Shown here: positions 6,488 through 25,285 of the stretch, one piece after another
Layout of the letters: each line of letters begins with the position of its first letter
Numbering within the stretch: position 1 is the stretch's first letter
NCBI GenBank assembly: GCA_963675665.1
Contig: OY776510.1
Span: 4,768,001-4,832,000, forward strand
Direction of reading: 5' to 3'
Origin: Spirochaetia bacterium
Lineage (GTDB): Bacteria; Spirochaetota; Spirochaetia; UBA9216
Length of the DNA stretch: 64,000 bases
Notes under the pieces: generated by a model
What the model saw: the letters and a program-made list of their open reading frames with translations, nothing else
Databases searched by the model: none
Told to the model about the DNA's origin: nothing
Program-made: the position numbers and the translations under genes

Positions 6488-6538
6488 GAAACTCCTCCTT
6501 AAATAATATTTGCAGCAGGAAACTCCTGCTTAACACCC

Positions 6539-10064: not shown

Positions 10065-10081
10065 AAACACTCCTTCCATAT

Positions 10082-10892: not shown

Positions 10893-10934
10893 TGGTCGAC
10901 CAGTTCTTGACTTATGCGGATACCGTAGTATACT
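10893..10934 (+). promoter_or_regulatory. TGGTCGACCA palindrome and sigma-70 promoter of a leaderless FadR gene
   Basis: TGGTCGACCA at 10893-10902; TTGACT-16 bp-TATACT, 6 nt before ATG 10941. Confidence 0.6.
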
Positions 10935-10940
10935 AAACTT

Positions 10941-11645
10941 ATGGAAATAGATAATTTTCAACCGATTGAAGAAAAAGATAAAACCGAAAAGATTGTAGAT
11001 GTGCTTCGAAACCTTATAGTATCGGAAAAATTAAAACCGGGCAGTGAACTTCCGGCAGAAAGAGAGTTTGCCGCTCAACTCAATGTAAGCCGATACAGCC
11101 TCAGGGAAGCTCTCAGGGCAGCCCAGGCTCAGGGGCTTATTGAAATAAGCAGAGGAAAAAGACCAAGAGTAACAAATCCCTCGTCAGAAGCAGCGATTCA
11201 AATACTGGGACTTGCGATTAAAAGGTCCAAAGCCACTTTTTTCGATCTGGTAATAGCGAGAATAAGCCTTGAATGTGAGATAGCAGGTATTGTAGCTGCA
11301 AAAGTAACGAATGATTTACTTGAGAAACTGGAAATCATAACCAAACAGATGGAATACCATAAAGATGATAAAGAATTTTGCGCTGAAAAAGATCTTGAAT
11401 TTCATAATGCCTTGCTGGAAGCAAGCGGTAATCAGGTTTTTAAAATAATGCTCTCGTCCGTTGCTCAACTTTTAATGACATCCAGAATGGCAACTCTTGA
11501 ATTAACCGGGGTCGATCGCGCCCTGGAAGGTCATAAAAATATTATTATCGCTCTAAAAAAGGGCGACAGCACACTGGCAAAAGAAGCGATGCTTAAACAC
11601 CTTGAGATGGCGGAGGATGATATACTTAAACTTGATACTATGTAG
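10941..11645 (+). CDS. GntR/FadR-family regulator (FCD domain)
   Basis: ELPAEREFAAQLNVSRYSLREA wHTH; DLEFH...ASGN. Confidence 0.92.
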   Translation: MEIDNFQPIEEKDKTEKIVDVLRNLIVSEKLKPGSELPAEREFAAQLNVSRYSLREALRAAQAQGLIEISRGKRPRVTNPSSEAAIQILGLAIKRSKATFFDLVIARISLECEIAGIVAAKVTNDLLEKLEIITKQMEYHKDDKEFCAEKDLEFHNALLEASGNQVFKIMLSSVAQLLMTSRMATLELTGVDRALEGHKNIIIALKKGDSTLAKEAMLKHLEMAEDDILKLDTM

Positions 11646-12354
11646 ACGTCTTCCTGATCTTCTCTGCATTGGCCTGGGCCTTCAGTAAATGCTCAAGCAT
11701 GAGTTCTTCAGCAAGTTCCGCCTTTCCGTCCTTTACTGCATTAAATATTCCGATATGATCCTTCAGACTCTTCTCCGGTTGATCTTTAATTATCAGGGTA
11801 GTCTCCTGTGTTTTTATCAGCATGTTTCTTGCAAGCGCAAGCATCTTTTCAAATACCGAGTTACCGGCTGCAGTTGCAAGAGCACTATGAAAGGCGGTAT
11901 CGCCTTCAACGCCCAATCCGCCTGAAGCTATATCGGATCTCATTTTCTCTATACTCAAAGCAATGTTCTTTAAGTCATTATCTGTTCTTCTTTCAGCGGC
12001 AATTTTTGCAATTTCCGTTTCCAGAAGCTTTCTGAACTCAAGCATTTCTATAATAACAGTCTGTTCACTTGCCAGAATTTCAGAAAACGGATTTAGAAGA
12101 GCTTCAATTGACACCTTATTAACAAAAATACCGCCCCCGGTACCGACCTGCGGTTTAAGAAAACCAAGAGCTTCAAGAACCCTCAGGGCTTCACGTATGG
12201 AGGCCCTGCTGACCTGGAACTGCTCTGACAGTTCCCTCTCACTCGGAAGCTGTTCGCCTTCCTTGAAGGTTCCGCCGATAATCATACTCTGGAGCCTCTT
12301 CAGCACCTCTTCAGAGAGACGACTCTTTCTAATAGGTTCTATCCGCGGCTCCAT
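11638..12354 (-). CDS. GntR/FadR-family regulator (PdhR/LutR-like)
   Basis: QLPSERELSEQFQVSRASIREA; DTAFH...AAGN; last gene of the 23383-11638 gene string. Confidence 0.92.
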   Translation of the reverse strand: MEPRIEPIRKSRLSEEVLKRLQSMIIGGTFKEGEQLPSERELSEQFQVSRASIREALRVLEALGFLKPQVGTGGGIFVNKVSIEALLNPFSEILASEQTVIIEMLEFRKLLETEIAKIAAERRTDNDLKNIALSIEKMRSDIASGGLGVEGDTAFHSALATAAGNSVFEKMLALARNMLIKTQETTLIIKDQPEKSLKDHIGIFNAVKDGKAELAEELMLEHLLKAQANAEKIRKTST

Positions 12355-12361
12355 AAATATT

Positions 12362-13816
12362 TTACTCCTTGACTGCTTCTACTGCATCCTCAAATGCCTG
12401 ATTAATCATCTGAAGCGGAACTTTCTCAATATAACCCTCTTTATTCATAGAGTCTACAAGCTTTCTTGAATAGGTTATATCCTCCAATGCCTTGTTAAAA
12501 ACTTCTTCACGGCTCAATTCAACACGCGCCAGGCCTTCTTTAATAGCCTGCATGGCAACATCGGCTGCTTCATACGGAAAAACTCCCGGCTCATCCATGG
12601 TAGCGATTATATTATCGGGTGTAATACCCCTATTCTCGGCATACCTTGCGAGCGATTCGGCTGCGGCAATTGCCATACCGTCGGAAATCTTTCTTGCTCT
12701 AACAAGAAGCGCCCCTTTTAAAATCCCCGGAAATCCGACCGAATTATTAACCTGATTCGGGAAGTCTCCCCTCCCGGTAGCTACAATAAAAGCGCCTGCT
12801 TCTTTAGCCGCATAGGGATAAATCTCCGGAACGGGATTGGCGCAGACGAATACTATAGACTTATCAGCCATCCGGCTGACATCTTCAGGAGATACGGTAT
12901 CCGGCCCCGGCTTTGAAAGCGCAATCAGCACATCGGCCCCTGTCATTGCCTCACTGAAATCGTCTATCTTGTCCGGATTGGTCTGCCGGCACAGTTCCCA
13001 TTTCCGGTAAAATCTTTCATCAGCCTCAATATCCTTTCTGTCTTTGTGAAGGGAACCTTTGGAATCAAACATTATTATCTTTGAAGGGTCAGCCCCCGCC
13101 TTTATTACAATCCGTGCAATTGTGGCATTAGCAGCGCCGGCGCCGAGAAGAACAATCTTTATATCTTCAATCTTCTTTTCCGCCAGTTTGACCGCGTTGA
13201 TCAGCCCCGCCAGAGTGACACAGGCTGTTCCCTGGGCGTCGTCATGCCAGACCGGGATGTCGCATTCTTCACGAAGGGTATCAAGAACCCTGTAACAGTT
13301 AGGTTGGGAAATATCTTCTAGGTTTACAGCGCCGAATGAAGGCTGGGCCATTTTTACAAATTCAATAATTTTATCGGGATCATTCTCGCCTTTTTCATTC
13401 CTGCTGTCGACACAAAGAGCTGTGGCATCCACGCCCCCAAGGTATTTCATAAGAAAGGACTTCCCCTCCATTACACCGAGCCCACCGGGCGGCGTACAAT
13501 TGCCGTCTCCAAGGACCCTTGTTGAATCGCTGACAACCGCTACATAATTCCCTTTATTGGACAAGTCGTACGCGGCTTCATTATCGTCCCTTATGGAAGT
13601 TGATACCCTGGAAACGCCCGGCGTGTACCACACATTAAACCAGTTGAAGCCGAAAACTCCGGCTTTCGGCACCGTCTGCATCTTCCCGCCGTAAAACATA
13701 TGGGCTTTTTCAGCAAGGTTCTTTAAAAAAACTGTTTTGAGCCTTGCGGACTGAGCCTCGCTAAGATTTCTTTTTTTTATTTCCTCTTCAAGATTGTCCA
13801 GTTCAAGATTAATCAT
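12362..13816 (-). CDS. NAD(P)-dependent malic enzyme
   Basis: WYTPGVS, VMEGK, NLEDI, WHDDAQGTA, GAGAA, ANPVPEI, TGRGDFPNQVNN; ATG 13816 after GGAGG preferred over 13837. Confidence 0.93.
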   Translation of the reverse strand: MINLELDNLEEEIKKRNLSEAQSARLKTVFLKNLAEKAHMFYGGKMQTVPKAGVFGFNWFNVWYTPGVSRVSTSIRDDNEAAYDLSNKGNYVAVVSDSTRVLGDGNCTPPGGLGVMEGKSFLMKYLGGVDATALCVDSRNEKGENDPDKIIEFVKMAQPSFGAVNLEDISQPNCYRVLDTLREECDIPVWHDDAQGTACVTLAGLINAVKLAEKKIEDIKIVLLGAGAANATIARIVIKAGADPSKIIMFDSKGSLHKDRKDIEADERFYRKWELCRQTNPDKIDDFSEAMTGADVLIALSKPGPDTVSPEDVSRMADKSIVFVCANPVPEIYPYAAKEAGAFIVATGRGDFPNQVNNSVGFPGILKGALLVRARKISDGMAIAAAESLARYAENRGITPDNIIATMDEPGVFPYEAADVAMQAIKEGLARVELSREEVFNKALEDITYSRKLVDSMNKEGYIEKVPLQMINQAFEDAVEAVKE

Positions 13817-13838
13817 TATCTTCCTCCAATAAAACATT

Positions 13839-13854
13839 CCCGCATGGATGCGGG
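13839..13854 (-). repeat. Short GC-stem hairpin with NUCCAU loop upstream of malic enzyme (copy 2 of 3)
   Basis: + strand CCCGC-ATGGAT-GCGGG, 22 nt upstream of ATG 13816. Confidence 0.6.
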
Positions 13855-13923
13855 CTACGGAGACGAAGTTTGATCAGCAACGCTTATCAAACTTTAAAAA
13901 GATAAAAAGTCATGGAAGACTTT

Positions 13924-15192
13924 TTATCTTTCCTCCTGTTTTTTTTCAAGCGGCAGAACTGATCCGCCGTAGGGCATAATATGAACTCTGGCGTCCGGGC
14001 CTTTCCTTTTCAAGGCTTCATCCAGCGCTTTCTGCGGAGACTCAAACGGCTCCATAAAGATCTTTCTTACATAATCGTCGGGCATTGCCGAAACGAGACA
14101 GATATCCGCCTTTTCGAGAATCAAACCGATTGCCGCGGCTTTATGACCGCCGAGAATGAAATTCCGCTGAATTTCTTCAATCATGTCTTCAGGTTTTTCG
14201 AAATCTTCCATCCATCTTTCAAAAGATTCTCCGCCCAGTCCTTCGGAACATTCCGCGACAAGAATTATTATGCCGCCGTCTTTTACCGCGTGCTTTGAAT
14301 TATCAAGAGCTTTCTGGGCCTGATACAAATTCATATCTTTTGGAAATCCCCCCGGAGAGACTATTACGATGTCGGCTTTTTCATCAAGCGGACAGCTGTA
14401 TATCCTGTCCAGAAAACGGCAGCCCTCCCTGTGCGCCAGTACGGGGTCTCCTCCGAAAGCTCCTATTATGTTCTTGTGTTCATCCAGTACTACATTAATC
14501 AGAAAATCGATTTTAATAAAATCTGCGACTTCTTCAATATCCTCCCTCACAGGATTACCCGTCATATTGCCGGCCCGGGCGCCGTCTTTAACCATATTGC
14601 TGTGGTTTTTCTGGATGGCTGAAAAGGTCGAAACTCCCGGCATTATAGCCTTATACCCGCCGCTGTAACCGGCAAAATAATGATATTCAATATTTCCCAG
14701 ACATATCCGTTTATCCGCCTCGACTACAGTTCTGAAGATATCTACTGGGGTTCCCCGCGATGTTGTTCCCAGCGATACGACATCATCAGGATCACTGTCT
14801 ATGCATTTAATCCTGTCGTATATATCGTTTCCCGCAAGCTTCTTTTTTTCATCTTCGGTGTGCTTTCGATGACTTCCAAGCCCAAACACAACGGTTATGT
14901 CGGAATCGGCAATGCCGACCCGGTTCAATTCATATACAAGCTGAGGCAGGACCTTATAGCTCGGCATAGGTCTTGTTATATCGCTTGTTATGATCACAAC
15001 CTTTTCCCCTTTTTTAAACAGCTTGCTTACCGAGGCGCAACCGATCGGGCTCAGAATTGATCGGGCTATCAGCGTTTCTTCATACAAGTCGTTCTGAATC
15101 TCCGACGCCCTCAGGACAGAGCCGGTATTCAAATCCGGAATATTCAACTCTCTCGATTGTCTTCCGTATTTCAGTTTAATATTCATCCTCAA
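13924..15192 (-). CDS. larA: LarA-family nickel-pincer-dependent 2-hydroxyacid racemase/epimerase
   Basis: SDITRP, LGSHR, HYFAGYSGGYKA, NH and YQAQKA motifs. Confidence 0.88.
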   Translation of the reverse strand: MRMNIKLKYGRQSRELNIPDLNTGSVLRASEIQNDLYEETLIARSILSPIGCASVSKLFKKGEKVVIITSDITRPMPSYKVLPQLVYELNRVGIADSDITVVFGLGSHRKHTEDEKKKLAGNDIYDRIKCIDSDPDDVVSLGTTSRGTPVDIFRTVVEADKRICLGNIEYHYFAGYSGGYKAIMPGVSTFSAIQKNHSNMVKDGARAGNMTGNPVREDIEEVADFIKIDFLINVVLDEHKNIIGAFGGDPVLAHREGCRFLDRIYSCPLDEKADIVIVSPGGFPKDMNLYQAQKALDNSKHAVKDGGIIILVAECSEGLGGESFERWMEDFEKPEDMIEEIQRNFILGGHKAAAIGLILEKADICLVSAMPDDYVRKIFMEPFESPQKALDEALKRKGPDARVHIMPYGGSVLPLEKKQEER

Positions 15193-15195
15193 ACC

Positions 15196-16596
15196 TCATT
15201 TTCTTTCGGGCATTTTATGCACGGAAAGTCCTTCGATATCATGCACACATTCCATTACCGCTTCGGAAACCGTCGGATGCGGATGAATTAATCCGCCCAG
15301 TTCTTCAATAGTCAGCTCAGCACTTATCGCAAGGGCAACCTCCGATATCAGCTCTGTAGCTTTGGGGCCTATCATTTGACACCCTATAACAGCGCCTGTC
15401 CTGTTATCCGAGACGATCTTGATAAAACCGGTATTCTCGCCTGTTATAAAGGCCTTGCTGTTACCGGCAAAAGAATAATGACCGCACTTTACATCTATTC
15501 CTTCAGCAGCAGCTTCCGCCCCGGTTTTCCCCGCGGAGGATATCTCTGGGCGGGTATAAACGCAGGACGGAATTACATCCTGATTTGTATGATTTTTTTC
15601 CCCTGAAATATGCGCGACTGCGATTATTCCCTGTGCCGATGCGGCATGAGCCAGCTGCAGCCCCCCGGAAACATCGCCTATTGCATAAATATTGGGGACG
15701 TTTGTCTGCATGTTGCTGTCGGTTTTAATAACTCCCCGGATTTCAGTTATCCCGGCGGATTCAAGATTCAAACCGTCTGTGCAGGTTTTTCTGCCCGTTG
15801 CTATCATGATCTCATCAGCCTGAATTACTTCTTCGCCTGCCCCGCTGCTGATCAAAGTTTTTATACCGTTCTCCCGCCGGACGCTTATAACCTTTACGCC
15901 GGTCCGGATTGTTATACCGGATTTTTTAAGATGTTTTTCCAGTTCAGCTGCAATATCCCCGTCCATATTGGGAAGCAACTGCGGCTGCATTTCCAGAATT
16001 ATTACATCGACTCCGAGATCATTCAGAATTGTCGCACACTCAACGCCTATTACGCCGCCGCCGATTATTATCATGCTTGCCGGAAGTTCCCTGTTCTCTT
16101 CCAAAAGGGTATCGCTGGTCCAGTATTGTATTGTATCCAGCCCTTCTACCGGAGGAATTGCGGGGACCGAACCCGTTGCAAGTATAATATTTTCGGCGGA
16201 GATTACAACATCTTCACCATTGCCCGTGCATCTGAGCCTGTTACGTCCTTCGAAAACAGCCCTTGCTTTCAGGACTTTCACCCCGTTTGCTTTAAGAAGG
16301 CCTGCTACCCCCGATTTCAGCTGATTAACTACCCGATCTTTATAACCGTAGAGCGCATTCTGATCGACCTTGGGGGCTCCTGCTTTTATCCCGAATTTCT
16401 CTGCCGTCTTTATCACATCAAGTATTTCACATGAATGAAGCATTGCCTTCGTCGGTACGCATCCCCTGTTAAGGCATGTGCCGCCGAGTTCATTTTCTTC
16501 AATCAGAACCGTTTTTATTCCAAAACGGGCGGCCCTTATGGCTGCCACATAGCCGCCCGGGCCTCCGCCTATTACTGCGAGCTTATATTGTTCCAT
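15196..16596 (-). CDS. lpdA: Dihydrolipoamide dehydrogenase (E3)
   Basis: GGGPGGY, GGTCLNRGCVPTK, HPHPTVSE. Confidence 0.95.
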   Translation of the reverse strand: MEQYKLAVIGGGPGGYVAAIRAARFGIKTVLIEENELGGTCLNRGCVPTKAMLHSCEILDVIKTAEKFGIKAGAPKVDQNALYGYKDRVVNQLKSGVAGLLKANGVKVLKARAVFEGRNRLRCTGNGEDVVISAENIILATGSVPAIPPVEGLDTIQYWTSDTLLEENRELPASMIIIGGGVIGVECATILNDLGVDVIILEMQPQLLPNMDGDIAAELEKHLKKSGITIRTGVKVISVRRENGIKTLISSGAGEEVIQADEIMIATGRKTCTDGLNLESAGITEIRGVIKTDSNMQTNVPNIYAIGDVSGGLQLAHAASAQGIIAVAHISGEKNHTNQDVIPSCVYTRPEISSAGKTGAEAAAEGIDVKCGHYSFAGNSKAFITGENTGFIKIVSDNRTGAVIGCQMIGPKATELISEVALAISAELTIEELGGLIHPHPTVSEAVMECVHDIEGLSVHKMPERK

Positions 16597-16606
16597 AACT
16601 AATTCC

Positions 16607-17911
16607 CTAAATAAGTCTGTAAGGGTTCTCCAGAATCGATTTTATCAACATCAGGAATTCCGCCGCCGGCGCCCCGTCTATCACCCTGTGATCATAAGTC
16701 AGCGTAAGGCTGCATACAGGCCTTATCTCCAGCTTGCCGTCAACAGCAACAGGTTTATCCTTTATTGCTCCTACAGCCAGGATTCCGCTTTCGGGTTCAT
16801 TTATAATAGCTGTAAACCTGTCCAGTCCGTACATTCCGAGATTGGAAACAGTAAAAACCGCACCGTTAAGTTCTTCAGGCATCAGTTTTCCGCTCTTTGC
16901 CTTTTCTCCCAGTTCCCGGCTTTCACTATTGATTTCCTCAAGATTCTTATGAACAACGTCCCTCATAACCGGTACAATCAGGCCTTCCTCTAAAGCTACA
17001 GCCATCCCTATATTAATATCCCGGTAACTGAGTATTTCATCACCCTGAAGGCTGCAGTTAAGTGCCGGCATCTGCTCCAGCGCAGCCGCCGCAGTTTTAA
17101 GTATGATATCGTTATATGAAACCTTGATTCCGGCTTCCTTCAACATCGCGCGAAGCCTTACAGCTTCAGTCATTTCAACATCAACATTGTGGGTTGCCTG
17201 CGCGGCCGTATCGAGGCTTGATCGCATCCGCTCCGCAATCACCTTTCTCATCCCCTTCAGCGGTTTCCGGATTATGCTGTCCGCGGACGCATCCTGGCTT
17301 CCCTCAAGGTCGTGGCTGTAAATCTTGCCGCGAGGCCCGCTTCCGCCGACCTTCGATAAATCAACCCCCTGCTGCTGAGCAATTCGTTTTGCAAGCGGCG
17401 TGACTGCAGCTGAAACGGTTTGAGCGGACAGAACATCGCGCTCAATCACAAGCCCGTCCGGTCCGCTGCCGGCGATTCCTTCTATATCCAGGCCCTTTTC
17501 ACCGGCCCTCATTTTCGCGCGGGGGCTCGCAAACTTTCTCTGCGTATCCCTGCCGTCAGCAGTTACTGCAGTAAGATTCGGTACAGCAGCTGAGGCAGCT
17601 TCGTTTACGCCCGAAACCGGGGACTGCTGCTCCGCGCCTTCTTTTTCCGCTATTATCTCAGAGATATCTTCTCCGCTCTCACCGATAACCGCAATGGTTT
17701 CGGTAATCGGTACGACATCGCCCACGGAATTAAATATTTTAAGTATATGCCCGCCGGCGGGAGCGTCTATTTCAATTGTCAGCTTGTCGGTTTCCATCTC
17801 AAAGAGAGGATCGCCTTCATTTACAGAATCACCTTCCTGTTTAAACCACTCCAGTATTGTTCCTTCGGTCATCTGCAAACCCTGTTTGGGCATTATCACC
17901 TTTGTCGCCAT
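16607..17911 (-). CDS. Dihydrolipoamide acyltransferase (E2); one lipoyl domain, two subunit-binding domains
   Basis: METDKL lipoyl site; ASPRAK and TPLAKR domains; DHRVIDG. Confidence 0.93.
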   Translation of the reverse strand: MATKVIMPKQGLQMTEGTILEWFKQEGDSVNEGDPLFEMETDKLTIEIDAPAGGHILKIFNSVGDVVPITETIAVIGESGEDISEIIAEKEGAEQQSPVSGVNEAASAAVPNLTAVTADGRDTQRKFASPRAKMRAGEKGLDIEGIAGSGPDGLVIERDVLSAQTVSAAVTPLAKRIAQQQGVDLSKVGGSGPRGKIYSHDLEGSQDASADSIIRKPLKGMRKVIAERMRSSLDTAAQATHNVDVEMTEAVRLRAMLKEAGIKVSYNDIILKTAAAALEQMPALNCSLQGDEILSYRDINIGMAVALEEGLIVPVMRDVVHKNLEEINSESRELGEKAKSGKLMPEELNGAVFTVSNLGMYGLDRFTAIINEPESGILAVGAIKDKPVAVDGKLEIRPVCSLTLTYDHRVIDGAPAAEFLMLIKSILENPYRLI

Positions 17912-17920
17912 GATATTCTC

Positions 17921-18898
17921 CTACTTGTATAAAACAGTTTTTGCACCTTCGACAATATTGTCAACACCGGGCACAACCGCATCTTCCAGAACCAGGGAAA
18001 ACGGCAGCGTACAGGCTTTTGCCCCCAGTCTTTCAACCGGAGCATCAAGGTATTTAAAGGCCTTCTCTGTAATCTGCGAAGCGATTTCCGCGCCGACGCC
18101 CCCCGTCTTGTGTGCTTCATGGACTATAACTGCTCTGCCCGTTTTTTTAACCGAATCGACAATTGTATCGATATCAAGCGGCAGGACGGTTCTGGGATCA
18201 ATTATCTCCGCGTTAATACCTTCAGAGGCAAGCTTTTCAGCAGCCTCAAGGGCCCTTGAAACCATCAAAGAGGTAGCTATAACGGTTACGTCGGAGCCGG
18301 GCCTTACAACTGAGGCCTTCCCGAAGGGAACGGTAAAATCCGGATCATCAGGTACTTCGCAGCTTGAAGCATAAAGGGCTTTGTGTTCAAAGAACATTAT
18401 CGGGTTATTGTCCCTGATTGCCGTTCTCAAAAGCCCTGCTGCATCAGCCGCATTTGACGGCATGGCGACCTTCAATCCGGGAATATGCACAAAGAAAGCC
18501 TCAAGACTCTGGGAATGCGTTCCTGCATTGCCCCGTCCTATACCCTGCTGGCCCCGGATTACCATCGGGATGGAAGCCTTGCCTCCGTACATATATCTGA
18601 GTTTGGCAGCCTGGTTCAGAATCATGTCCATTGCAACATATGTAAAATCCATATACATAAGTTCAACTATGGGCCTCATTCCGGCAAGGGCCGCGCCTAT
18701 CCCGGCGCCAACAAAACCCGCTTCCGAAATCGGCGTATTTCTGACTCTGCCGCCGAATTCATCCAGCAGTCCTCTTGTGCACCCGAAAATACCGCCCTGC
18801 TCGGCAATATCTTCTCCGATTATAAAAACATCCTTGTCTCTACGCATTTCTTCAGCAATTACATCACGGATCGCAACAGCATATTTTTTAACACTCAT
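17921..18898 (-). CDS. ThDP-dependent dehydrogenase E1 beta (AcoB/PdhB-like)
   Basis: IGEDI, NTPISE, HSQSLE, EHK, IDPRT. Confidence 0.93.
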   Translation of the reverse strand: MSVKKYAVAIRDVIAEEMRRDKDVFIIGEDIAEQGGIFGCTRGLLDEFGGRVRNTPISEAGFVGAGIGAALAGMRPIVELMYMDFTYVAMDMILNQAAKLRYMYGGKASIPMVIRGQQGIGRGNAGTHSQSLEAFFVHIPGLKVAMPSNAADAAGLLRTAIRDNNPIMFFEHKALYASSCEVPDDPDFTVPFGKASVVRPGSDVTVIATSLMVSRALEAAEKLASEGINAEIIDPRTVLPLDIDTIVDSVKKTGRAVIVHEAHKTGGVGAEIASQITEKAFKYLDAPVERLGAKACTLPFSLVLEDAVVPGVDNIVEGAKTVLYK

Positions 18899-18909
18899 TA
18901 TTATCTCCT

Positions 18910-19866
18910 TCAGTCACAGTAAACATTATCCAGAACATGCGTCGGGTCCGGTTCGGGGCTGTTTATTGCAAAATCCTCAGCCTCGGCAATAATCCTGTCC
19001 GCCTCAGCATGCGCCGCATCAATTCCGGCCTGGTCCATGACGCCTTCGTCGAGCATATACTTCTCAAGCCGCTTGATCGGACATTTCCGCTTCCATTCTT
19101 CTACTTCTTCTCTGGTCCTGTAAACTTCAGGATCTCCGGTCCAGTGCCCGTACCACCTGTAAGTCTTGCACTCGATCAGCGACGGGCCTTCGCCTTTCCG
19201 GGCCCTGACAAGGGCCTTTTTGAAAGCCTTGTCGACAGCAAAAATATCATTGCCGTCTACAACGGTTCCGGGAATGTTATACGCCTTTGCCCTTACCGCG
19301 ATATCTTCAACGGAAGTACTGATGCTAACGTGAGTGGATATTCCGAACTGGTTGTTTTCGCATACAAAAATAACCGGAAGTTTCCATACGGAGGCAAGAT
19401 TAAGCCCCTCGTGAAAAACTCCTTCGTTGGAAGCGCCGTCCCCGAAAAATGTGACGGCAACCTGGTCGGTTCCGCGCAGCTGCGCCGCGAGGCCGGCTCC
19501 GGTCGCAATCGGAATACCTGCGCCTACAATTGCATTGGCGCCGAGATTGCCTTTGGTAACATCAGCAATATGCATTGAACCGCCGCGTCCCCCGCAATAG
19601 CCGGTGGCTTTCCCCATCAGTTCGGCAAGAGCCTTGTCCGGTTCAGCGCCCTTGGCTATGCAGTGACCGTGCCCCCTGTGTGTGCTGGTAATATAGTCGT
19701 CATCGCCCAGATTGGAACATACTGTAGTCGGGACGGCTTCCTGACCTATCGTAAGATGCACCGATCCCCTGAGTTTATTCTCTTCGAAAAGCTTCAGAGC
19801 TTTTTCTTCAAATCTTCTTATCACAAGCATGTCGTGATATATTTTAAGCATTCGTTTCTTTTCCAT
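18910..19866 (-). CDS. ThDP-dependent dehydrogenase E1 alpha (AcoA/PdhA-like)
   Basis: GQEA, STHRGHGHCIAKG, GDGA...ENN, TYRWYGH; ATG 19866 after AGGAG preferred over 19887. Confidence 0.93.
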   Translation of the reverse strand: MEKKRMLKIYHDMLVIRRFEEKALKLFEENKLRGSVHLTIGQEAVPTTVCSNLGDDDYITSTHRGHGHCIAKGAEPDKALAELMGKATGYCGGRGGSMHIADVTKGNLGANAIVGAGIPIATGAGLAAQLRGTDQVAVTFFGDGASNEGVFHEGLNLASVWKLPVIFVCENNQFGISTHVSISTSVEDIAVRAKAYNIPGTVVDGNDIFAVDKAFKKALVRARKGEGPSLIECKTYRWYGHWTGDPEVYRTREEVEEWKRKCPIKRLEKYMLDEGVMDQAGIDAAHAEADRIIAEAEDFAINSPEPDPTHVLDNVYCD

Positions 19867-19889
19867 ATGCTTTTCTCCTAATAGCAATT

Positions 19890-19907
19890 CCTGCCATGGA
19901 GGGCAGG
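19890..19907 (-). repeat. Short GC-stem hairpin with NUCCAU loop upstream of E1 alpha (copy 3 of 3)
   Basis: + strand CCTGCC-ATGGAG-GGCAGG, 23 nt upstream of ATG 19866; 17/18 identical to the rhaA copy. Confidence 0.7.
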
Positions 19908-19995
19908 TTCTTAAGGTAGAGTTTTTAAATAAAAATTAAAAACTTCAAAATACAAAAAGTACGAAGTACTTTAGAAGTATTTTTTTGTATTCCTT

Positions 19996-20865
19996 CTATA
20001 TAATTCCGGCTACGATATCTACAAGATCTTCGGTGCCTTCAGCAATCAGCACTCCGGCAGCCTTAAGCGCCGCTTCCTTGTTTTCAGCAGATCCCTCTCC
20101 GTCCGGAGAAACTATCGCGCCGGCGTGCCCCATACTGGTATCCTTGGGCGCATTCTTGCCCGCTATCAATGCCACTACCGGTTTGGTAATATTTTCCTTG
20201 ATATATGCCGCGGCTATTTCTTCTTCGCTTCCGCCTATTTCTCCAATCATGACGATCACTTTTGTTTCTTCATCTTTCTCAAAAAACGGCAGAATATCCA
20301 CAAACATCGAACCGGGGATCATATCTCCGCCTACTCCGATGCAGGTCGACTGCCCGATATTCTTTTTCTTCATCATAAAAACCGTTTCATAACAGTTTGT
20401 CGCGCTGCGAGACATTATTCCCACATTTCCGGGCAGGAAAATTCGGTGGGCCATAAAACCTGCTTTGGCTTTGCCCGGAGAAATTATTCCGAAAGAATTC
20501 GGTCCTATCAATCTGCAGCCTTTTTCCTTTGCAAGATAATGAAGTTTCAGCATCTCATGAACGGGAACTCCCTCGGCAATGGTTATGACCAAAGGTATCC
20601 CCGACAGGATAGCCTCATATGCCGCTTTATACATGAATCTGGGCGGCACAAAGAGGACGGTAGCATTCGCGTCCGTCATTTCCTTTGCCTGCAGAACTGT
20701 ATTGAATACGGGAATTCCGAGGACAGAGGTGCCGCCCTTTCCCGGAGTAACACCGGCTACAACCTTTGTACCGTATTCAAGCATCTGCTCGGTATGGAAA
20801 GAGCCTTCCCGGCCTGTTATTCCCTGAACTATTAGTCTGGTATTTTCATCTATAAAAAAACTCAT
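19996..20865 (-). CDS. ADP-forming acyl-CoA ligase alpha subunit (SucD-like, divergent)
   Basis: VQGITGREG, GVTPGKGG, GEIGG, MGHAGA phospho-His; GPNSFG and SRSATNCYE differ from typical SucD. Confidence 0.88.
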   Translation of the reverse strand: MSFFIDENTRLIVQGITGREGSFHTEQMLEYGTKVVAGVTPGKGGTSVLGIPVFNTVLQAKEMTDANATVLFVPPRFMYKAAYEAILSGIPLVITIAEGVPVHEMLKLHYLAKEKGCRLIGPNSFGIISPGKAKAGFMAHRIFLPGNVGIMSRSATNCYETVFMMKKKNIGQSTCIGVGGDMIPGSMFVDILPFFEKDEETKVIVMIGEIGGSEEEIAAAYIKENITKPVVALIAGKNAPKDTSMGHAGAIVSPDGEGSAENKEAALKAAGVLIAEGTEDLVDIVAGII

Positions 20866-22004
20866 AACCCCATCCCCTGTGCAAGCACTTCGACTCCTTC
20901 CTTCAGACCGTCAGCCATTTTAATCCCGCCGCGGATCGTGTTGATGATTTCAAGACCCTTTTCCCTGTTTGTTCCTTCAAGTCTTGTTACCAGTCTTATT
21001 CCGTTCATATCGGCCATTGCAGCCTTTATTCCGTTTGCGATTTCGTCGCATCTTGTTATACCGCCGAAAATATTTATAAAAATTGTATCCACCCCGGAAG
21101 CCGAAGCTACTATTCTGAGAGCTTCCTTTATTCGTTCCGCAGTGGCCCCGCCGCCGAGATCAAGAGCGGAAGTCACTGTCATGCCGCGCTTGGTTATCAG
21201 ATCTATCGACGACATAATCATCCCGGAACCATTGCTGATTACCGCAATATTGCCTTCATTCCTGACCGGAATATATAAAAAATCAAATTTTCTTGCCTCA
21301 AGAACAAGGGGGTTCTCTTCTATTTCATCCCTGAAATCCTTGATATCACCGTGTTTATAAAGCGAATTGTCATCGATATCAATCTTGCCGTCGAGGGCCA
21401 TGATCCTGTTTTGTTCATCAATTATTAACGGGTTAATCTCTGCAAGCATGCAGTCCATTCCGATAAAAACATCGTACAGTTTCTTTACAACATTACGGAA
21501 TTCATCAGTATAATCACGGTTAAGACCTGATTTATCGATTGCATAATCTATAATAAAATCATCAATAATATCAGAAGGATTTATAAGAACTTTCACAATC
21601 TTTTCCGGATACTTATCAGCAATCTCGTTTATATCAACCCCGCCCTCAGGGCTGAAAATCATAACCGCTTTCTTGTATTTACGATCCAGGGTAAAGCTGA
21701 GATACATTTCCTTCCTGATTTCAACTTTTTCGGTAATAAAAATCCGTTTGACCGGCAGGTTTTTAATCTTCATATCAAGAACGGAGGAGCCTCTTTCAAC
21801 AAGTTCATCGTCATTCCCGGCAAACTGTACTCCTCCAGCCTTGCCGCGCCCGCCGGTCTGCACCTGGGCTTTGATAACTGCAGGGTAATTAACCTTACCC
21901 TGCAGGGCCTTAAGCTCTTCAACCGACGAGGCAACACACCCCTCGCTGCATGGAAGCTCAAAGCGCTTAAACAGTTCATGTGCCTTATATTCAAGCAGTT
22001 TCAT
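20862..22004 (-). CDS. ADP-forming acyl-CoA ligase beta subunit (SucC-like, divergent)
   Basis: KAQVQTGGRGKAGG, EINPL, NIFGGITRCD, RLEGTN; NGSGMIMSSID where SucC has NGAGLAMATMD. Confidence 0.88.
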   Translation of the reverse strand: MKLLEYKAHELFKRFELPCSEGCVASSVEELKALQGKVNYPAVIKAQVQTGGRGKAGGVQFAGNDDELVERGSSVLDMKIKNLPVKRIFITEKVEIRKEMYLSFTLDRKYKKAVMIFSPEGGVDINEIADKYPEKIVKVLINPSDIIDDFIIDYAIDKSGLNRDYTDEFRNVVKKLYDVFIGMDCMLAEINPLIIDEQNRIMALDGKIDIDDNSLYKHGDIKDFRDEIEENPLVLEARKFDFLYIPVRNEGNIAVISNGSGMIMSSIDLITKRGMTVTSALDLGGGATAERIKEALRIVASASGVDTIFINIFGGITRCDEIANGIKAAMADMNGIRLVTRLEGTNREKGLEIINTIRGGIKMADGLKEGVEVLAQGMGL

Positions 22005-22009
22005 CTATA

Positions 22010-23383
22010 TTATTCCTCTTCAGCCCATATCTCTTCATCAGTCGGAATAACTACGTTCGGTTTAATCTTGGCTACCCGGGTTATATTTAGGAGGTGCTTA
22101 TAATAAAAATTCTCGGAAATACTGTTGTTTCCCCATGAACCGCAACCCAGGGTGCTGGTAGCATTCAACCCGTTCAGAAAAGACCCGCCGATATTGATTG
22201 AACACGGCTGATTAACCAGGATTCGGCTTACGGGAGCTTTTTCGGCAAGCCTGACAATGTTTTTATCATTTTCAGAGTGGATAACAACAGTGTGGCCCTT
22301 TCCTTCTACCTCAAGGTTTTCAAGAACTATCTCAACAGCCTCGCCAAAGTCTTTATATTTAAACGGAACTATAACCGGAAACATTTTTTCTTTTCTGAGC
22401 AGGCTGTCCGTGTTTGAGTTTTCTTCAGGAATCACGATAACGACCGTATCCTCCGGCATTTCCACTCCGGCCCGCTCTGCAATGGTCTGAATCGGCTGAC
22501 CTATCAAATCCCTGTTTATAATTCCGTTTGGGAAAAGGGCTGTAACCAGCTTCTCACGTTCATCAGCATCAGTTACTACATAGCCGCCGTTAGCCGCGAG
22601 CTCTTTCAATACATCGTCATAAAGTTCTTCAGGCGCTATCACCGTTTGTTCGCCGGAACAGATGATTCCGTTATCAAAAACACGCCCGGTCACTATCTTC
22701 TCGACGGCATCCTTTAAATTAACACCCCGATCAATAACAGCCTGAACATTCCCCGCGCCTACTCCGAAGGACGGTTTACCGCTTGAATATGCGGCTTTTA
22801 CCATTCCTGCGCCGCCGGTGGCCACAGTCACATCGGTCATCTTCATCAGAAGATTCGAACGTTCAATATTTACATCCTCTACAACCTGAACGATATTTTC
22901 AGGAGCATTAAACTCCTTTAAGATCTTGTTCCATTCGTCCACCAGGAACTTTGTGCAGTTTACAGCCCTGGGATGCGGAGCAATTATTATTGTATTCCGT
23001 CCCTTAAGCGCCGCCATCGCGTTTGCCATAGGAGTGACAATCGGATTTGTACAGGGCTGAATTGCGCCTACGACTCCGATTGGTTTCGCAATCTCTATGA
23101 TTCCAAGCTCTGCATCCTCAGCAATAATCCCCTGTGCCTTTTTACCTTTCAGACTGTGCCACATAATCCTGGCCTTTCCGAGGTGCTTCTTTGTTTTAAA
23201 TTCTACAGTTCCCATCTTTGTTTCATTGTGCGCCATCTCGGCCAGCGGCACAGCATTGTCATAAACATACTTTGCAATCGCCCTGATCATTTTATCTATT
23301 CTTTTCTGATCGAAGGATTCAAATTCCTTAAGCGCGGTTCTTGATTTAACAACAAGCTCTTTAATATATTCTTCGTTTGTCAT
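22010..23383 (-). CDS. CoA-acylating aldehyde dehydrogenase (succinate-semialdehyde dehydrogenase/EutE-like)
   Basis: PCTNP, ATGGAGMVKAAYSSGKP, FDNGIICSGEQ, EKMFP, GHT, TLGCGSWGNN. Confidence 0.88.
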   Translation of the reverse strand: MTNEEYIKELVVKSRTALKEFESFDQKRIDKMIRAIAKYVYDNAVPLAEMAHNETKMGTVEFKTKKHLGKARIMWHSLKGKKAQGIIAEDAELGIIEIAKPIGVVGAIQPCTNPIVTPMANAMAALKGRNTIIIAPHPRAVNCTKFLVDEWNKILKEFNAPENIVQVVEDVNIERSNLLMKMTDVTVATGGAGMVKAAYSSGKPSFGVGAGNVQAVIDRGVNLKDAVEKIVTGRVFDNGIICSGEQTVIAPEELYDDVLKELAANGGYVVTDADEREKLVTALFPNGIINRDLIGQPIQTIAERAGVEMPEDTVVIVIPEENSNTDSLLRKEKMFPVIVPFKYKDFGEAVEIVLENLEVEGKGHTVVIHSENDKNIVRLAEKAPVSRILVNQPCSINIGGSFLNGLNATSTLGCGSWGNNSISENFYYKHLLNITRVAKIKPNVVIPTDEEIWAEEE

Positions 23384-23410
23384 ATGAGTTTCTCCTTATC
23401 ATTTAAACCT

Positions 23411-23493
23411 TTTAATGGTCTGACCTTTAAATTATTGATCCATGTACTGTTTTTGTCAAGCACTGTTTACATTTTAATGGACAGACCTTTTCA
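23411..23493. promoter_or_regulatory. Two FadR-type operators with divergent sigma-70 promoters
   Basis: TTTAATGGTCTGACCTTTAAA (23411-23431) and TTTAATGGACAGACCTTTTCA (23473-23493); minus TTGACA-17-AATAAT; plus TGGACA-17-TATATT. Confidence 0.7.
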
Positions 23494-23513
23494 AAAAAGG
23501 TATATTTCCATTG

Positions 23514-24254
23514 ATGGATCAAAAAATTACACCTATCAAGCGCAAAAGAGTCTCTGAAGAAGTTTTCAGACAATTATTCGACATGATAAACGATCATATT
23601 TACAGCCCGGGAGATCAGCTTCCAAGCGAAAGAGAGCTGGCTGAAAGATTCAAGGTCAGCAGGGCTTCAGTAAGAGAAGCCGTTAAAACCCTTGAAACGA
23701 TGGGTCTTATAGAATCAAGTGTAGGTGTCGGCGGGGGCAATTTTGTAAAGGAAGTGTCTCTGGAAACAATGATCTCTCCTTTCGCATCATTTCTTGATCA
23801 CAAAAAAAATCTTCTTGTGGAAATGATGGAATACAGGCTTGTACTTGAAACTGAAATAGCACGGCTTGCCGCCGAACGCAGAAACGATGAAGATCTAAAA
23901 AAAATTGAGGCCTCGGTGGAAGCAATGCGCAAAGAGGTTGCTGACGGAGGACTTGGCCTTTCAGGCGATAATATGTTTCACGAATATGTTGCCTCAGCAA
24001 CCCATAACCAGGTCTTTGTCCATATGCAGGAACTGGCGAAGACATTGCTTGAAAAGACGCGTGAATCGTCTTTGAGCGTGAAAGGGATTCCCCAACGGGG
24101 AATCGAGCAGCACCGCCGTATCTTCGAAGCCATCAGGGCGGGATCTCCGAAAGCCGCCGCAGAAGCGATGCATGAGCATATAACGGAAGCCATGATCAAT
24201 GTTCAGAAGCACGAGGGAATAAACCAGGGCAGCGATCAGTCTTCCGGCATATAA
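23514..24254 (+). CDS. GntR/FadR-family regulator, paralog of 11638..12354
   Basis: QLPSERELAERFKVSRASVREA; ATG 23514 lies 7 nt after TATATT (ORF track starts at TTG 23511). Confidence 0.92.
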   Translation: MDQKITPIKRKRVSEEVFRQLFDMINDHIYSPGDQLPSERELAERFKVSRASVREAVKTLETMGLIESSVGVGGGNFVKEVSLETMISPFASFLDHKKNLLVEMMEYRLVLETEIARLAAERRNDEDLKKIEASVEAMRKEVADGGLGLSGDNMFHEYVASATHNQVFVHMQELAKTLLEKTRESSLSVKGIPQRGIEQHRRIFEAIRAGSPKAAAEAMHEHITEAMINVQKHEGINQGSDQSSGI

Positions 24255-25285
24255 ATAGCTTTTATACCTTTCTCCGCCTCAAGAAGACCAAATGTCTGTT
24301 CCCAGTCTTCCAGCCTGAAATTGTGCGTAATAATGTTCGACAGCATATCTCCTTTATCCCGAAGAAGACCAAGGGCCTTGTCCCAGGATGTATAGCTTGA
24401 ACTGAAGTTGAACCTTATGTCGAGTACCTTGTGCATTGCAGCGTTCCACGGGAACTGTATATATTCATCGGCGCAGAGTCCTATCGCTGAAACCCTTCCC
24501 TTACGTCGCAATGCCGCAACTCCGTCTCTAATCGCAGGAGGCGCCCCGCTCGTCTCTATCAGAACATCCGCTCCGCGCCCGCCAGTCAGCTCGTTTATCC
24601 TGTCCTGCAGGTTCTCTTTCTGCACATTGACGATATAGTCGGCGCCGAGCCTCCGTGCAGCATCAAAACGGATTATCTCTCCGCTGTTCATTCCTGTCAT
24701 CAGGACACTGCCTGCACCCTGCATTTTGGCAATAAACGTAGCCAGTATCCCCATCGGTCCGGCGCCGGTTACAAGCACAAAGTCCTGCATCTCTATTACC
24801 CCGGCTTCAGACACCTGGTGCACGGCTATGGCAAGGGGTTCGGCAAGCGCTGCAAGTTCGTAGCTGACTCCTTCGGGTATCCGGTGAATAAGCTGAGCAG
24901 GCATTTTAAGGTAATCTGCAAAGGCCCCGTCTATTCCCCAGCCCGGAGAGCGCTTGTCCGCGCACATCTGAACCATTCCCTGCCGGCAGTATTCGCAAAG
25001 CCCGCAGTTCATCGAATGGGGTTCGGACACCACCCTGTCTCCGACGCTTACGTTTTTTACAGCCGCACCCGCTTCGACAACCTCCCCGGAGAACTCATGC
25101 CCGAGAATGACCGGCGGCCAGTATGGAAAATGATCGTGCCGGATATGCAGATCGGTTCCGCATACCCCTGCTGCCTTCACTTTTATAAGAACCCAGTCGG
25201 GCTCGCCCAGTTCCGGCGCAGGCACTTCGCGCACTTCGATATTTCCGGGTCCTTTTGCTGTTTTTACCAACGCTTTCATTGTCAT
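24236..25285 (-). CDS. Zn-dependent (MDR) polyol/sugar dehydrogenase
   Basis: GVCGTD, GHE, CGLCEYC...C, GAGPMG; ATGA overlap with the moaD stop. Confidence 0.9.
   Translation of the reverse strand: MTMKALVKTAKGPGNIEVREVPAPELGEPDWVLIKVKAAGVCGTDLHIRHDHFPYWPPVILGHEFSGEVVEAGAAVKNVSVGDRVVSEPHSMNCGLCEYCRQGMVQMCADKRSPGWGIDGAFADYLKMPAQLIHRIPEGVSYELAALAEPLAIAVHQVSEAGVIEMQDFVLVTGAGPMGILATFIAKMQGAGSVLMTGMNSGEIIRFDAARRLGADYIVNVQKENLQDRINELTGGRGADVLIETSGAPPAIRDGVAALRRKGRVSAIGLCADEYIQFPWNAAMHKVLDIRFNFSSSYTSWDKALGLLRDKGDMLSNIITHNFRLEDWEQTFGLLEAEKGIKAIYMPED

Follow-up and report, generated by a model that had tools for sequence, protein, structure and literature searches.

The operon described here lies in a window of 64,000 nucleotides (nt) from the genome of a Spirochaetia bacterium, positions 4768001-4832000 of a single contig of 5.15 Mb without N, and encodes a coenzyme A (CoA)-acylating aldehyde dehydrogenase (ALDH) together with a ligase resembling succinyl-CoA synthetase (SucCD), a lipoamide-dependent E1/E2/E3 complex, a nickel-dependent racemase and a malic enzyme. 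An earlier note, made from the sequence alone, had pointed to nine co-oriented enzyme genes between positions 12362 and 23383 of the window, and this is borne out by the coordinates of the open reading frames (ORFs) and by Pfam and NCBIfam, which assign all nine to the families then named. The genes form a head-to-tail array on the minus strand, headed by an ALDH of the SucD (succinate-semialdehyde) type, a proposed malate-semialdehyde dehydrogenase (22010..23383), and followed by the SucC-like beta subunit (20862..22004) and the CoA-binding, phosphohistidine-type SucD-like alpha subunit (19996..20865) of an ADP-forming acid-CoA ligase. Then come E1 alpha (18910..19887; dependent on thiamine diphosphate (ThDP), of the acetoin/pyruvate-dehydrogenase type, 304 bits on Pfam E1_dh), E1 beta (17921..18898; Transket_pyr and Transketolase_C domains, 380.8 on the PRK09212 subfamily model against a cut-off of 321), the E2 dihydrolipoyl acyltransferase (16607..17911; lipoyl, E3-binding and catalytic domains) and the E3 dihydrolipoyl dehydrogenase (15196..16596; TIGR01350, 504.6 versus 408.8), and the enzyme genes end with a nickel-pincer-dependent malate racemase of the LarAH6/Mar2 type (13924..15192) and a malic enzyme of the type of about 490 residues (12362..13837). 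Spacers or overlaps between the nine ORFs are of at most 11 nt, with the exception of 108 nt between the SucD-like and E1 alpha genes and 86 nt between the racemase and malic enzyme genes.

The tenth and last gene of the operon, 7 nt past the malic enzyme and on the same strand, encodes a regulator with the GntR/FCD domains of Pfam (11638..12354), and a second GntR/FCD (FadR-type) regulator is transcribed divergently from the operon on the plus strand (23511..24254; Pfam GntR and FCD). The two are 47.6% identical over 210 amino acids, in agreement with the two paralogous FadR genes that had been described as bracketing the cluster. The accompanying statement that there is no transporter is correct for the interval 12362-23383 itself and fails functionally: sugar ABC systems lie directly on either side, a RhaS-like CUT2 importer at 5447..10079 (minus strand) and a second sugar ABC region at 28555-35776.

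The closest match of the ALDH in the PDB is 8CEI, the SucD of Clostridium kluyveri (CkSucD; 474.2 bits, versus 313.8 for AdhE). The alignment is full-length and free of gaps up to residue 394, so that the numbering is common to both proteins, while the loop past this residue differs and contains a one-residue insertion. Cys242, His364, Lys66, Lys70 and Ser243 of CkSucD are all present, aligned without gaps, and among 29 aligned members of the ALDH family Lys70 is kept in all 29 and Ser243 in 27. In the published account of CkSucD, Cys242 and His364 are catalytic and Lys70 and Ser243 coordinate the distal carboxylate of the acyl group, while PduP has hydrophobic residues at the positions of the latter two (PMC10249356). 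The conservation of this pair suggests that the aldehyde carries a carboxylate about four carbons away, and the sequence argues for a pocket built to receive a distal carboxylate. On the SauS model NF047625 the enzyme obtains 408.7 bits, short of the cut-off of 600, and it also falls under the EutE and AdhE equivalog cut-offs. A paralogue of the ALDH elsewhere in the genome sits beside a gene for a class-III aminotransferase.

In the ligase genes, the start of the alpha-subunit gene overlaps the beta gene by 4 nt. The SucC-like subunit scores 384.9 on NF001913 (cut-off 370) and 381.1 on a second NCBIfam model (cut-off 375.55), and the SucD-like subunit scores 374.5 on TIGR01019 (cut-off 353.2) and carries at position 246 a GHAGA sequence, which we take to be the phosphohistidine-loop motif of an alpha subunit of this kind. 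On the MtkA model (NF010647) the SucC-like subunit remains far below the cut-off, with 267.7 versus 604. As judged by tblastn, the genome encodes no SucCD pair besides the ligase of the operon. In a maximum-likelihood tree, unrooted and with the ALDH-linked group defined by neighbourhood, a long branch with 100/100 support separates all 20 sampled ALDH-linked SucC-like proteins from 12 canonical SucC (Escherichia coli, Staphylococcus aureus, Sphingomonas and nine spirochaetes) and three plasmid-borne MtkA, which form a clade of their own on the canonical side. The ligase is therefore a SucCD by score and not by tree position. A sample of 401 genomes of the phylum returned only canonical SucC matches of 33-42% identity, a search of the ESM Atlas only generic SucC clusters, and within the order to which the window belongs the ligase was found in two of 11 genomes, the other being G408. 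The G+C content of the part of the operon between 12001 and 20000 is 0.47-0.50, compared with 0.39 at 10001-12000 and values down to 0.37 in AT-rich parts of the window; together with the occurrence of the ligase in two of the 11 genomes, this is compatible with a lateral acquisition. The family of the ligase is one that acts on dicarboxylyl-CoA esters.

At the other end of the operon, the racemase scores 565.5 on the model of the malate racemase LarAH6 (NF052593, cut-off 500) and 356.4 on the lactate-racemase model (cut-off 460), and it matches Mar2 (PDB 6D6Z) with 437 bits, the two catalytic histidines, the cofactor-binding lysine and histidine and the GHK motif being conserved. The active-site residues and the GHK motif of malate racemases are defined in two studies, where these enzymes make up the largest group of LarA proteins and their role in vivo is left open (PMC7583248; PMC11770544); a malic enzyme lies near only 15% of the group-6 LarA genes (PMC7583248), and Mar enzymes also epimerise tartrate (PMC11770544). 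The malic enzyme matches the PDB entry 3NV9, named 'Malic enzyme', with 685.9 bits over residues 9-487. Its Pfam scores are low (62 bits for malic and 83.8 for Malic_M), and the idea that it is a divergent member of the family was dropped in view of the match of 686 bits.

The genome encodes six homologues of LarA (L001-L006), and the earlier note had proposed to check that the maturation genes larB, larC and larE exist elsewhere in it. Neither profile searches nor tblastn found any of them genome-wide: LarC gave no match with TIGR00299 or PF01969, and no LarE or LarB candidate rose above the cut-off, the best scores being 35.7 bits versus 150 and 39.3 versus 175, respectively. A member of the same genus (G409) has larC, larE and larB in a row, all above the cut-offs, and these genes used as tblastn queries had no match in the genome of the window, which is a single contig. 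In G408, the other ligase-bearing genome of the order, no larB, larC or larE was seen, at an assembly completeness of only 81%. The failure to detect larBCE weakens the case for an active racemase, and the question arises of cofactor sharing or of another biosynthetic route to the nickel-pincer nucleotide.

The E1/E2/E3 complex has the architecture of the acetoin dehydrogenase (Aco) systems, with E1 alpha and beta, a lipoyl-bearing E2 and an E3, and with an acylating ALDH and secondary-alcohol dehydrogenases nearby. E1 alpha has the GDG..NN ThDP motif and scores 374.2 on TIGR03182, the model of pyruvate dehydrogenase (PDH) E1 alpha, under the equivalog cut-off of 393.85; its best PDB match is human PDH E1 alpha (216 bits). 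E2, which shows the ETDK lipoyl-lysine motif and the DHRVIDG motif, is under every equivalog cut-off, with 337.8 on the acetyltransferase and 289.4 on the succinyltransferase model. Family scans of the E1 proteins returned no model specific for the Aco-type E1. In the plasmid collection, the closest annotated homologues of E1 alpha are 51-55% identical and bear the generic, non-PDH name 'TPP-dependent dehydrogenase E1' given by PGAP: that of Aminobacter is accompanied by an 'acetoin dehydrogenase' E2, and those of Agrobacterium and Brevibacillus adjoin sugar ABC or phosphotransferase (PTS) systems, SorC-type regulators and a PfkB kinase.

Five further sets of the E1/E2/E3 type are present in the genome, at 1.288 Mb (L019), 2.216 Mb (L020), 4.185 Mb (L021), 3.379 Mb (L022) and 2.14 Mb (L023). 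The E1 alpha at 3.379 Mb, beside citrate synthase, passes the PDH equivalog cut-off (436.6 versus 393.85), and this set is likely the PDH of the genome; three other E1 alpha paralogues score 333-357, below the cut-off, and the fused E1 alpha-beta of the fifth set 161.3. Pyruvate:ferredoxin oxidoreductase (PFOR) is encoded as well (1722 bits). The score of E1 alpha under the cut-off, the better-scoring paralogue, the PFOR and the Aco-type nearest homologues argue that the complex of the operon would not be the house PDH. As to the surroundings of the extra sets, two of which lie in sugar contexts, the genes of one are separated by inserted IS110 copies and enclose a LIV-type ABC importer, one lies in a sugar context with a lactonase, a short-chain dehydrogenase/reductase (SDR) and a ROK-family gene, one, whose E2 is without a lipoyl domain and whose E3 carries one, is accompanied by enoyl-CoA hydratase, acyl-CoA dehydrogenase and electron-transfer flavoprotein, and one, with the fused E1 alpha-beta, by DeoR, an SDR and an FGGY kinase.

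The conservation of the gene set was followed in 92 loci. A scan of species-representative genomes gave 12, all from metagenome-assembled genomes of Spirochaetota, and a metagenome scan with the ALDH alignment 80 more, which come without taxonomy and range in G+C from 0.33 to 0.64 among the eleven inspected; the presence of genes was counted by tblastn, and in 62 of the 92 the sequence continues for 1500 nt or more past the ALDH. In 27 of these 62 the ALDH is at least 53% identical to that of the window; here the SucC-like gene comes next in 25 and E1 is found in 18, and E1 is present in 15 of the 17 related loci that extend at least 3500 nt downstream, the exceptions being L033 and L100; these counts are not independent, many loci being close kin. 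With more distant ALDHs (35 loci), SucC is found in one and E1 in three. The arrangement ALDH-SucCD-E1-E2-E3 is thus not due to chance, and the dissolution of the gene set in other genomes, which the earlier note had named as one observation that would speak against its proposal, is not what the related loci display.

The part of the operon that follows is more variable. Racemase, malic enzyme and regulator follow the complex in L008, L010 and L013, with the regulator homologous to that of the window; in L035 the racemase follows the complex and then the contig ends, and in L018 and L086 the racemase is found alone. Two genes of the tartrate/D-malate-dehydrogenase family replace racemase and malic enzyme in L016 (441 and 484 bits, cut-off 470), one such gene is found in L014, and L047 has a different, shorter type of malic enzyme without a racemase. 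In L015, L031 and L105 the E1/E2/E3 genes are kept and no malate gene is seen within about 3 kb after E3, and in L063, L078 and L093 E1 comes straight after the ALDH, without SucCD or malic enzyme. In L033 the genes next to ALDH-SucCD, at the place where E1/E2/E3 would sit, are those of an SDR, of an aldolase of the FSA type (140 bits, below the cut-off of 246) and of a regulator. The malate-handling end of the operon is therefore replaceable between lineages. We place D-malate dehydrogenase in the family of the L016 and L014 genes. A racemase or an enzyme of that family would be needed only if the malate is the D form, so that the form of the operon in L047, without a racemase, would make L-malate. 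A homologue of the tartrate/D-malate dehydrogenases in the genome of the window (L027) was set aside, as it is a 3-isopropylmalate dehydrogenase instead (483.7 versus 393).

Secondary-alcohol dehydrogenases and importers for sugars or acids flank the cluster in every lineage seen. In the window, the CUT2 importer consists of an ATPase (8547-10079), two permeases (7543-8550 and 6539-7543) and a binding protein (5447-6487), and its operon is headed by an SDR dehydrogenase (10082..10813, minus strand; Pfam adh_short), which by its position may be an enzyme of the upper pathway. The binding protein has rhamnose-binding proteins as its best PDB matches (257 and 244 bits), scores 321.5 on the RhaS model (cut-off 342.25) and shares 44% identity with the true RhaS in the rhamnose locus, for which the score is 429.7. 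The same type of importer, with an SDR, adjoins the ALDH cluster in L047 and L050, the neighbourhood of the latter adding an IolO-like TIM barrel (254 bits versus 300). At the operon's opposite flank, a zinc-dependent alcohol dehydrogenase (Zn-ADH) resembling threonine 3-dehydrogenase (24236..25285, minus strand; 268 and 259 bits on Tdh models, below the cut-offs) is a candidate for the formation of a ketol, the link again being suggested by proximity. Genes homologous to it are found immediately upstream of the ALDH in L018, L082 and L099, two genes upstream (a lactonase and an SDR) in L017, and divergent from the ALDH in L033.

In the largest group of spirochaetes, a CUT2 importer, IolG (400 versus 355), a TIM-barrel protein and a protein of the M24 family precede the ALDH; the set is seen in L010, L011, L015, L016, L030, L031, L034, L035 and L105, and L013, L014, L032, L038 and L040 show part of it. 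IolG, the xylose-isomerase-like TIM barrel and the M24 'pita-bread' protein of 415 residues make a conserved triad between importer and ALDH (positions 5245-8440 of L010), and tblastn of the genome of the window returned no homologue of its TIM-barrel or M24 protein. PDB searches gave no informative match for the M24 protein, which has no close solved relative, for the binding protein of the L010 type or for the SDR of the window. Genes of the dihydrodipicolinate synthase (DHDPS) family and for D-2-hydroxyacid dehydrogenases occur with the cluster in L082, L063 and L080.

The 127 bp between the operon and the divergent regulator (23384..23510) have the features of a control region, with a promoter-like site and two operator-like boxes. 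The top promoter-like site of the scanned stretch, TTGACA-17-AATAAT with 11 of 12 matches, is on the minus strand at 23459..23431, and the two AATGGNNNGACCTT boxes, at 23414-23427 and 23476-23489, account for two of only four matches in the 5.15 Mb of the genome; from their sequence and position they look like operators of a FadR-type regulator. Within the window AATGGNNNGACCTT is found only at the ALDH promoter, and no operator common to the ALDH and SDR-ABC promoters was found. A third GntR/FCD regulator (10941..11645, plus strand; Pfam) is divergent from the SDR-ABC operon, and the interval between the two contains a perfect palindrome of 28 bp (10829-10856), unique in the genome, beside a TGGTCGACCA box; these palindromes of the SDR promoter differ from AATGGNNNGACCTT.

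We consider it probable that in the lower half of the pathway a C4 aldehyde-acid would be oxidised via its CoA ester to malate, and malate converted to pyruvate. The aldehyde is read as a C4 aldehyde-acid, with malate as the acid, because of the pocket of the ALDH, the family of the ligase and the three kinds of malate-decarboxylating enzyme recruited to the operon. The chain from acylating ALDH through ADP-forming ligase and racemase to malic enzyme, acting on a C4 hydroxy-dicarboxylate, had been drawn in the earlier note, and the ALDH pocket, the LarAH6 score and the swapped malate modules speak in its favour. The reading of the whole operon that we prefer, and to which we give just under an even chance, is that the genes encode the lower part of a non-phosphorylative pathway for keto-acids derived from sugars, with cleavage of a ketol and substrate-level phosphorylation. 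A nearby dehydrogenase (the SDR or the Tdh-like Zn-ADH here, IolG in other lineages) would make a ketol of the form R-CO-CH(OH)-CH2-CH(OH)-COOH or a regio-isomer, and the E1/E2/E3 complex would cleave it as acetoin dehydrogenase does acetoin, the carbonyl side giving acetyl- or glycolyl-CoA and NADH and the carbinol side malate semialdehyde, a C4 aldehyde-acid. Malate semialdehyde would be converted to malyl-CoA by the SucD-type ALDH, malyl-CoA to D-malate with formation of ATP by the SucCD-like ligase, D-malate to L-malate by the nickel racemase, and L-malate to pyruvate, CO2 and NAD(P)H by the malic enzyme, with the operon presumably under the control of the GntR/FCD repressors. The substrates, the direction of flow, the cleavage of the ketol and the D-configuration of malate are what we infer from sequence and gene order.

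On chemical reasoning, 2-deoxy-5-keto-D-gluconate is a candidate for the ketol, since in Fischer projection its C1-C4 piece would give D-malate; further candidates on the same grounds are a 3-deoxy-5-keto-hexonate, obtained by reduction of the 2-keto group of the product of KduI, and its 6-deoxy analogue, derived from 2-keto-3-deoxy-L-rhamnonate, from which acetyl-CoA would be expected. The formation of tartrate from 5-keto-aldonates by way of tartrate semialdehyde ranks below malate, as malic enzymes of two types have been recruited, but retains some probability in view of the epimerisation of tartrate by Mar enzymes. A broader version, in which an Aco-like complex has been recruited to cut the keto-deoxy sugar acids derived, depending on the lineage, from 6-deoxyhexoses, unsaturated uronates or inositols, and delivers acyl-CoA and malate semialdehyde to an ATP-yielding malyl-CoA/D-malate route, must be regarded as rather doubtful.

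As regards the role of the complex, the choice lies mainly between cleavage of a ketol, which would supply the aldehyde to the ALDH, and a dedicated PDH converting the pyruvate of the same lower pathway to acetyl-CoA, with the aldehyde made by an enzyme encoded elsewhere; the earlier note had named both, the PDH as its first option and the cleavage of a ketol as its second. A PDH, which we hold to be unlikely though still a serious contender, would agree with the PDH models and human PDH E1 alpha as closest relatives of E1 alpha, with the highest scores of E2 on acetyltransferase models and with the look of an add-on that the complex has in L009, where ALDH, SucCD and racemase exist without it. 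It agrees less well with a genome that already has a PDH-equivalog E1 alpha by citrate synthase and a PFOR, with the loci in which E1/E2/E3 lies beside the ALDH and no malic enzyme or racemase is in reach (L015, L031, L105, L063 and L093), or with L033, where an aldolase and not a PDH stands in place of the complex. These distributions argue that E1 goes with the ALDH and not with the malic enzyme, and because E1 stays by the ALDH without malate enzymes and an aldolase takes its place in L033, a role in the cleavage of a carbon-carbon bond is preferred to that of a terminal PDH. We thus lean to the second option of the earlier note, and a ketol cleaver supplying the aldehyde of the ALDH is what the complex seems to us to be, tentatively and at slightly less than an even chance. 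An alternative of a different kind is that the complex is a dehydrogenase of 4-hydroxy-2-oxoglutarate or of a related keto-deoxy acid, giving malyl-CoA directly, with the ALDH feeding the same ester. By chemical inference, oxidative decarboxylation of 4-hydroxy-2-oxoglutarate would yield malyl-CoA with a regiochemistry like that of succinyl-CoA, E2 scores also on succinyltransferase models (289 bits), and the DHDPS-family and D-2-hydroxyacid dehydrogenase genes of L082, L063 and L080 could belong to such a route; the cluster of the window, however, contains no gene for the formation of 4-hydroxy-2-oxoglutarate, its E1 is of the PDH/Aco alpha-beta type, and the loci with ALDH and E1 but no SucCD would be left unexplained, which makes this quite improbable.

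The remaining alternatives concern the acid that is released. That the ALDH and the ligase are a succinate-semialdehyde dehydrogenase and a succinyl-CoA synthetase, producing succinate and ATP, with racemase and malic enzyme serving a separate malate step, is to us improbable, if a little less so than a dehydrogenase for 4-hydroxy-2-oxoglutarate. It would suit CkSucD as the top structural match, a ligase with both subunits above the SucCD cut-offs and without a second SucCD in the genome, and the aminotransferase beside the ALDH paralogue, which recalls the use of gamma-aminobutyrate. It has to contend with the long 100/100 branch between the ligase clade and canonical SucC, with the absence of a plausible source of sugar-derived succinate semialdehyde nearby, and with three different malate-decarboxylating modules at the same position of the operon, which are hard to explain unless malate is the product. 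A version with sulfonates, in which sulfolactaldehyde or sulfoacetaldehyde would be converted via the CoA ester to sulfolactate or sulfoacetate and ATP, the racemase acting on sulfolactate as an isostere of malate and E1/E2/E3 on sulfopyruvate, is very improbable: pairs of an ALDH and a SucCD-like ligase are reportedly the logic of sulfoacetate formation, the ALDH gains 408.7 bits on the SauS model, and a split transketolase and a glycyl-radical enzyme are encoded 25 kb away, yet the SauS cut-off of 600 is not reached, the racemase passes the malate-racemase equivalog, the malic-enzyme and tartrate-dehydrogenase families decarboxylate a beta-carboxyl group that sulfolactate lacks, and the glycyl-radical enzyme is under all cut-offs for sulfonate enzymes. 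Least probable of all is the route that the earlier note had offered as its alternative, from the lactaldehyde of rhamnose through lactoyl-CoA to lactate and ATP, with LarA as a lactate racemase. A rhamnose locus with RhaA, a RhaD-like gene, RhaS and RhaM does adjoin the cluster, and RhaA is adjacent in L086 too, but this locus has its own LarA homologue and its own aldehyde:ferredoxin oxidoreductase (AOR), the malic enzyme and its replacements would be unexplained, and the proposal fits neither the racemase, with its malate-type score (565.5, versus 356.4 on the lactate model with its cut-off of 460), nor the pocket of the ALDH, where the pair Lys70/Ser243 is kept that is hydrophobic in enzymes of the PduP type (PMC10249356).

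Several observations weigh against the malate pathway with ketol cleavage that we prefer. Both ligase subunits pass the succinate-CoA ligase cut-offs of NCBI, narrowly (384.9 versus 370 and 374.5 versus 353.2), and the residues of the carboxylate pocket of the ALDH are identical to those of a true SucD; E1 alpha is only about 20 bits short of the PDH cut-off. With larB, larC and larE all missing, the activity of the racemase is uncertain. No single named ketol agrees with every one of the upstream gene sets, which comprise a RhaS-like ABC importer and an SDR here and IolG, a TIM barrel and an M24 protein elsewhere, and no dehydratase that could create the CH2 group of malate adjoins the cluster of the window. 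The order ALDH-SucCD-racemase without complex in L009 means that the lower part can do without the complex, which might just as well be an added PDH, and the kinship of most loci and the absent taxonomy of the metagenome loci reduce the weight of the conservation.

The logic of the operon may be viewed as two known patterns joined, on the one hand acetoin-type cleavage followed by an acylating ALDH and on the other the succession of acylating ALDH and ADP-forming ligase. In the anaerobic use of acetoin and 2,3-butanediol, AcoA, AcoB, AcoC and AcoL act before an acylating acetaldehyde dehydrogenase. The operon shares with this system the E1 alpha and beta, lipoyl E2 and E3, the secondary-alcohol dehydrogenase and the CoA-acylating ALDH and, in the proposed chemistry, the conversion of a ketol to an acyl-CoA and an aldehyde and of the aldehyde to a second acyl-CoA; it differs in that its ALDH is of the carboxylate-binding SucD type, in the addition of a SucCD-like ligase, a racemase and a malic enzyme, in the context of sugar or sugar-acid import and in a substrate that would be a carboxylated, hydroxylated ketol. 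The second pattern is reportedly that of SauS/SauCD (PMC10413351) and SqwD/SqwKL, an acylating sulfoacetaldehyde dehydrogenase with an ADP-forming sulfoacetate-CoA ligase, in which, as proposed here, an aldehyde with a distal anion is converted to its CoA ester and a SucCD-type ligase then forms ATP. In the operon, unlike these systems, the partners are malate enzymes and a lipoamide complex, transketolase and sulfonate enzymes are absent, and the SauS cut-off is missed, as are those of PDH E1 alpha and MtkAB.

With regard to the single enzymes, the ALDH differs from CkSucD in the oxidative direction proposed and in its partners, which are the ligase, racemase and malic enzyme of the operon instead of the enzymes of 4-hydroxybutyrate. 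MtkAB of the serine-cycle methylotrophs is likewise a SucCD homologue that acts on malate and malyl-CoA with ATP/ADP, as is proposed for the ligase, but it activates L-malate at the cost of ATP, whereas the ligase of the operon would release malate and gain ATP. The racemase resembles Mar2 of Thermoanaerobacterium thermosaccharolyticum in the LarAH6 equivalog, the active site and the GHK motif (PMC7583248), and differs from it in that its gene is part of a defined catabolic operon and that no larBCE was detected in the genome. The lower pathway of L-carnitine in Acinetobacter baumannii reportedly includes a malic semialdehyde dehydrogenase and D-malate (PMC11353897). In both that pathway and the one proposed, a C4 hydroxy-aldehyde-acid is oxidised to malate, in the operon by way of a CoA ester and a ligase. 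The carnitine route is said to employ a non-acylating dehydrogenase, to bring no gain of ATP and to be fed by an oxygenase. A search of open-access papers and preprints returned no description of the cluster or of an acylating malate-semialdehyde dehydrogenase, and the contexts in which malate semialdehyde appeared there were limited to the breakdown of carnitine and engineered pathways for 2,4-dihydroxybutyrate.

If the proposed route is correct, it would provide a physiological role for nickel-dependent malate racemases, a natural acylating malate-semialdehyde dehydrogenase and a SucCD homologue that releases malate and forms ATP; it would extend the acetoin-type ThDP/lipoamide cleavage to sugar acids and mean extra ATP for fermenting spirochaetes living on sugars of plant walls. 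The broader version, if true, would be a new non-phosphorylative pathway for sugar acids, in which each molecule brings two or three substrate-level phosphorylations, and would explain why malate racemases form the largest LarA group; the racemase of this genome would then have to receive its nickel-pincer cofactor otherwise than from the cell's own synthesis by the known LarB/LarC/LarE route. The proposed route would further help to annotate the many 'PDH-like' complexes in sugar-uptake loci, such as the five additional sets of this genome and those on replicons of Rhizobiales and Brevibacillus.

The window as a whole is an island of sugar-acid genes, with RhaA, a RhaD-like gene, two KduI and one KduD above the cut-offs, a TRAP system and a hydrolase of the GH88/105 family. 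The rhamnose locus (positions 1-5044 of the window and the preceding L026, 4752001-4768000 of the genome) holds RhaA, a RhaD-like aldolase, an AraC regulator, RhaM, a two-component system, a tungsten-type AOR and the true RhaS ABC system, and a further LarA homologue, with 372 bits on the malate-racemase model and thus below the cut-off, lies directly beside its aldolase gene. A TRAP transporter with KduI, KduD and an IclR regulator is found at 40049-45391, and the GH88/105-family hydrolase with a non-acylating ALDH, the second KduI and GntR/FCD regulators at 59370-62869; by their predicted functions, the two regions together represent the classical route for unsaturated uronates. The stretch between them, 46905-58516, encodes an SDR, a transketolase split into N- and C-terminal halves, a glycyl-radical enzyme and the activase belonging to it, as well as an ABC importer for sugars and a Zn-ADH resembling Tdh. 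The glycyl-radical enzyme scores 381-393 bits on the models of hydroxyproline dehydratase, sulfopropanediol dehydratase and choline lyase, versus cut-offs of 1000-1100, none of which is passed. Upstream of the second sugar ABC region, a protein of 607 amino acids with an N-terminal ABC-ATPase and a C-terminal histidine-kinase ATPase domain (37195-39018) adjoins a sigma-54 response regulator (35862-37208). One AOR and one Zn-ADH of the window, used as queries, belong to unusually large paralogue families for the oxidation of aldehydes and alcohols, with 16 AOR-like and 27 Zn-ADH-like places in the genome by tblastn at a coverage of at least half of the query.

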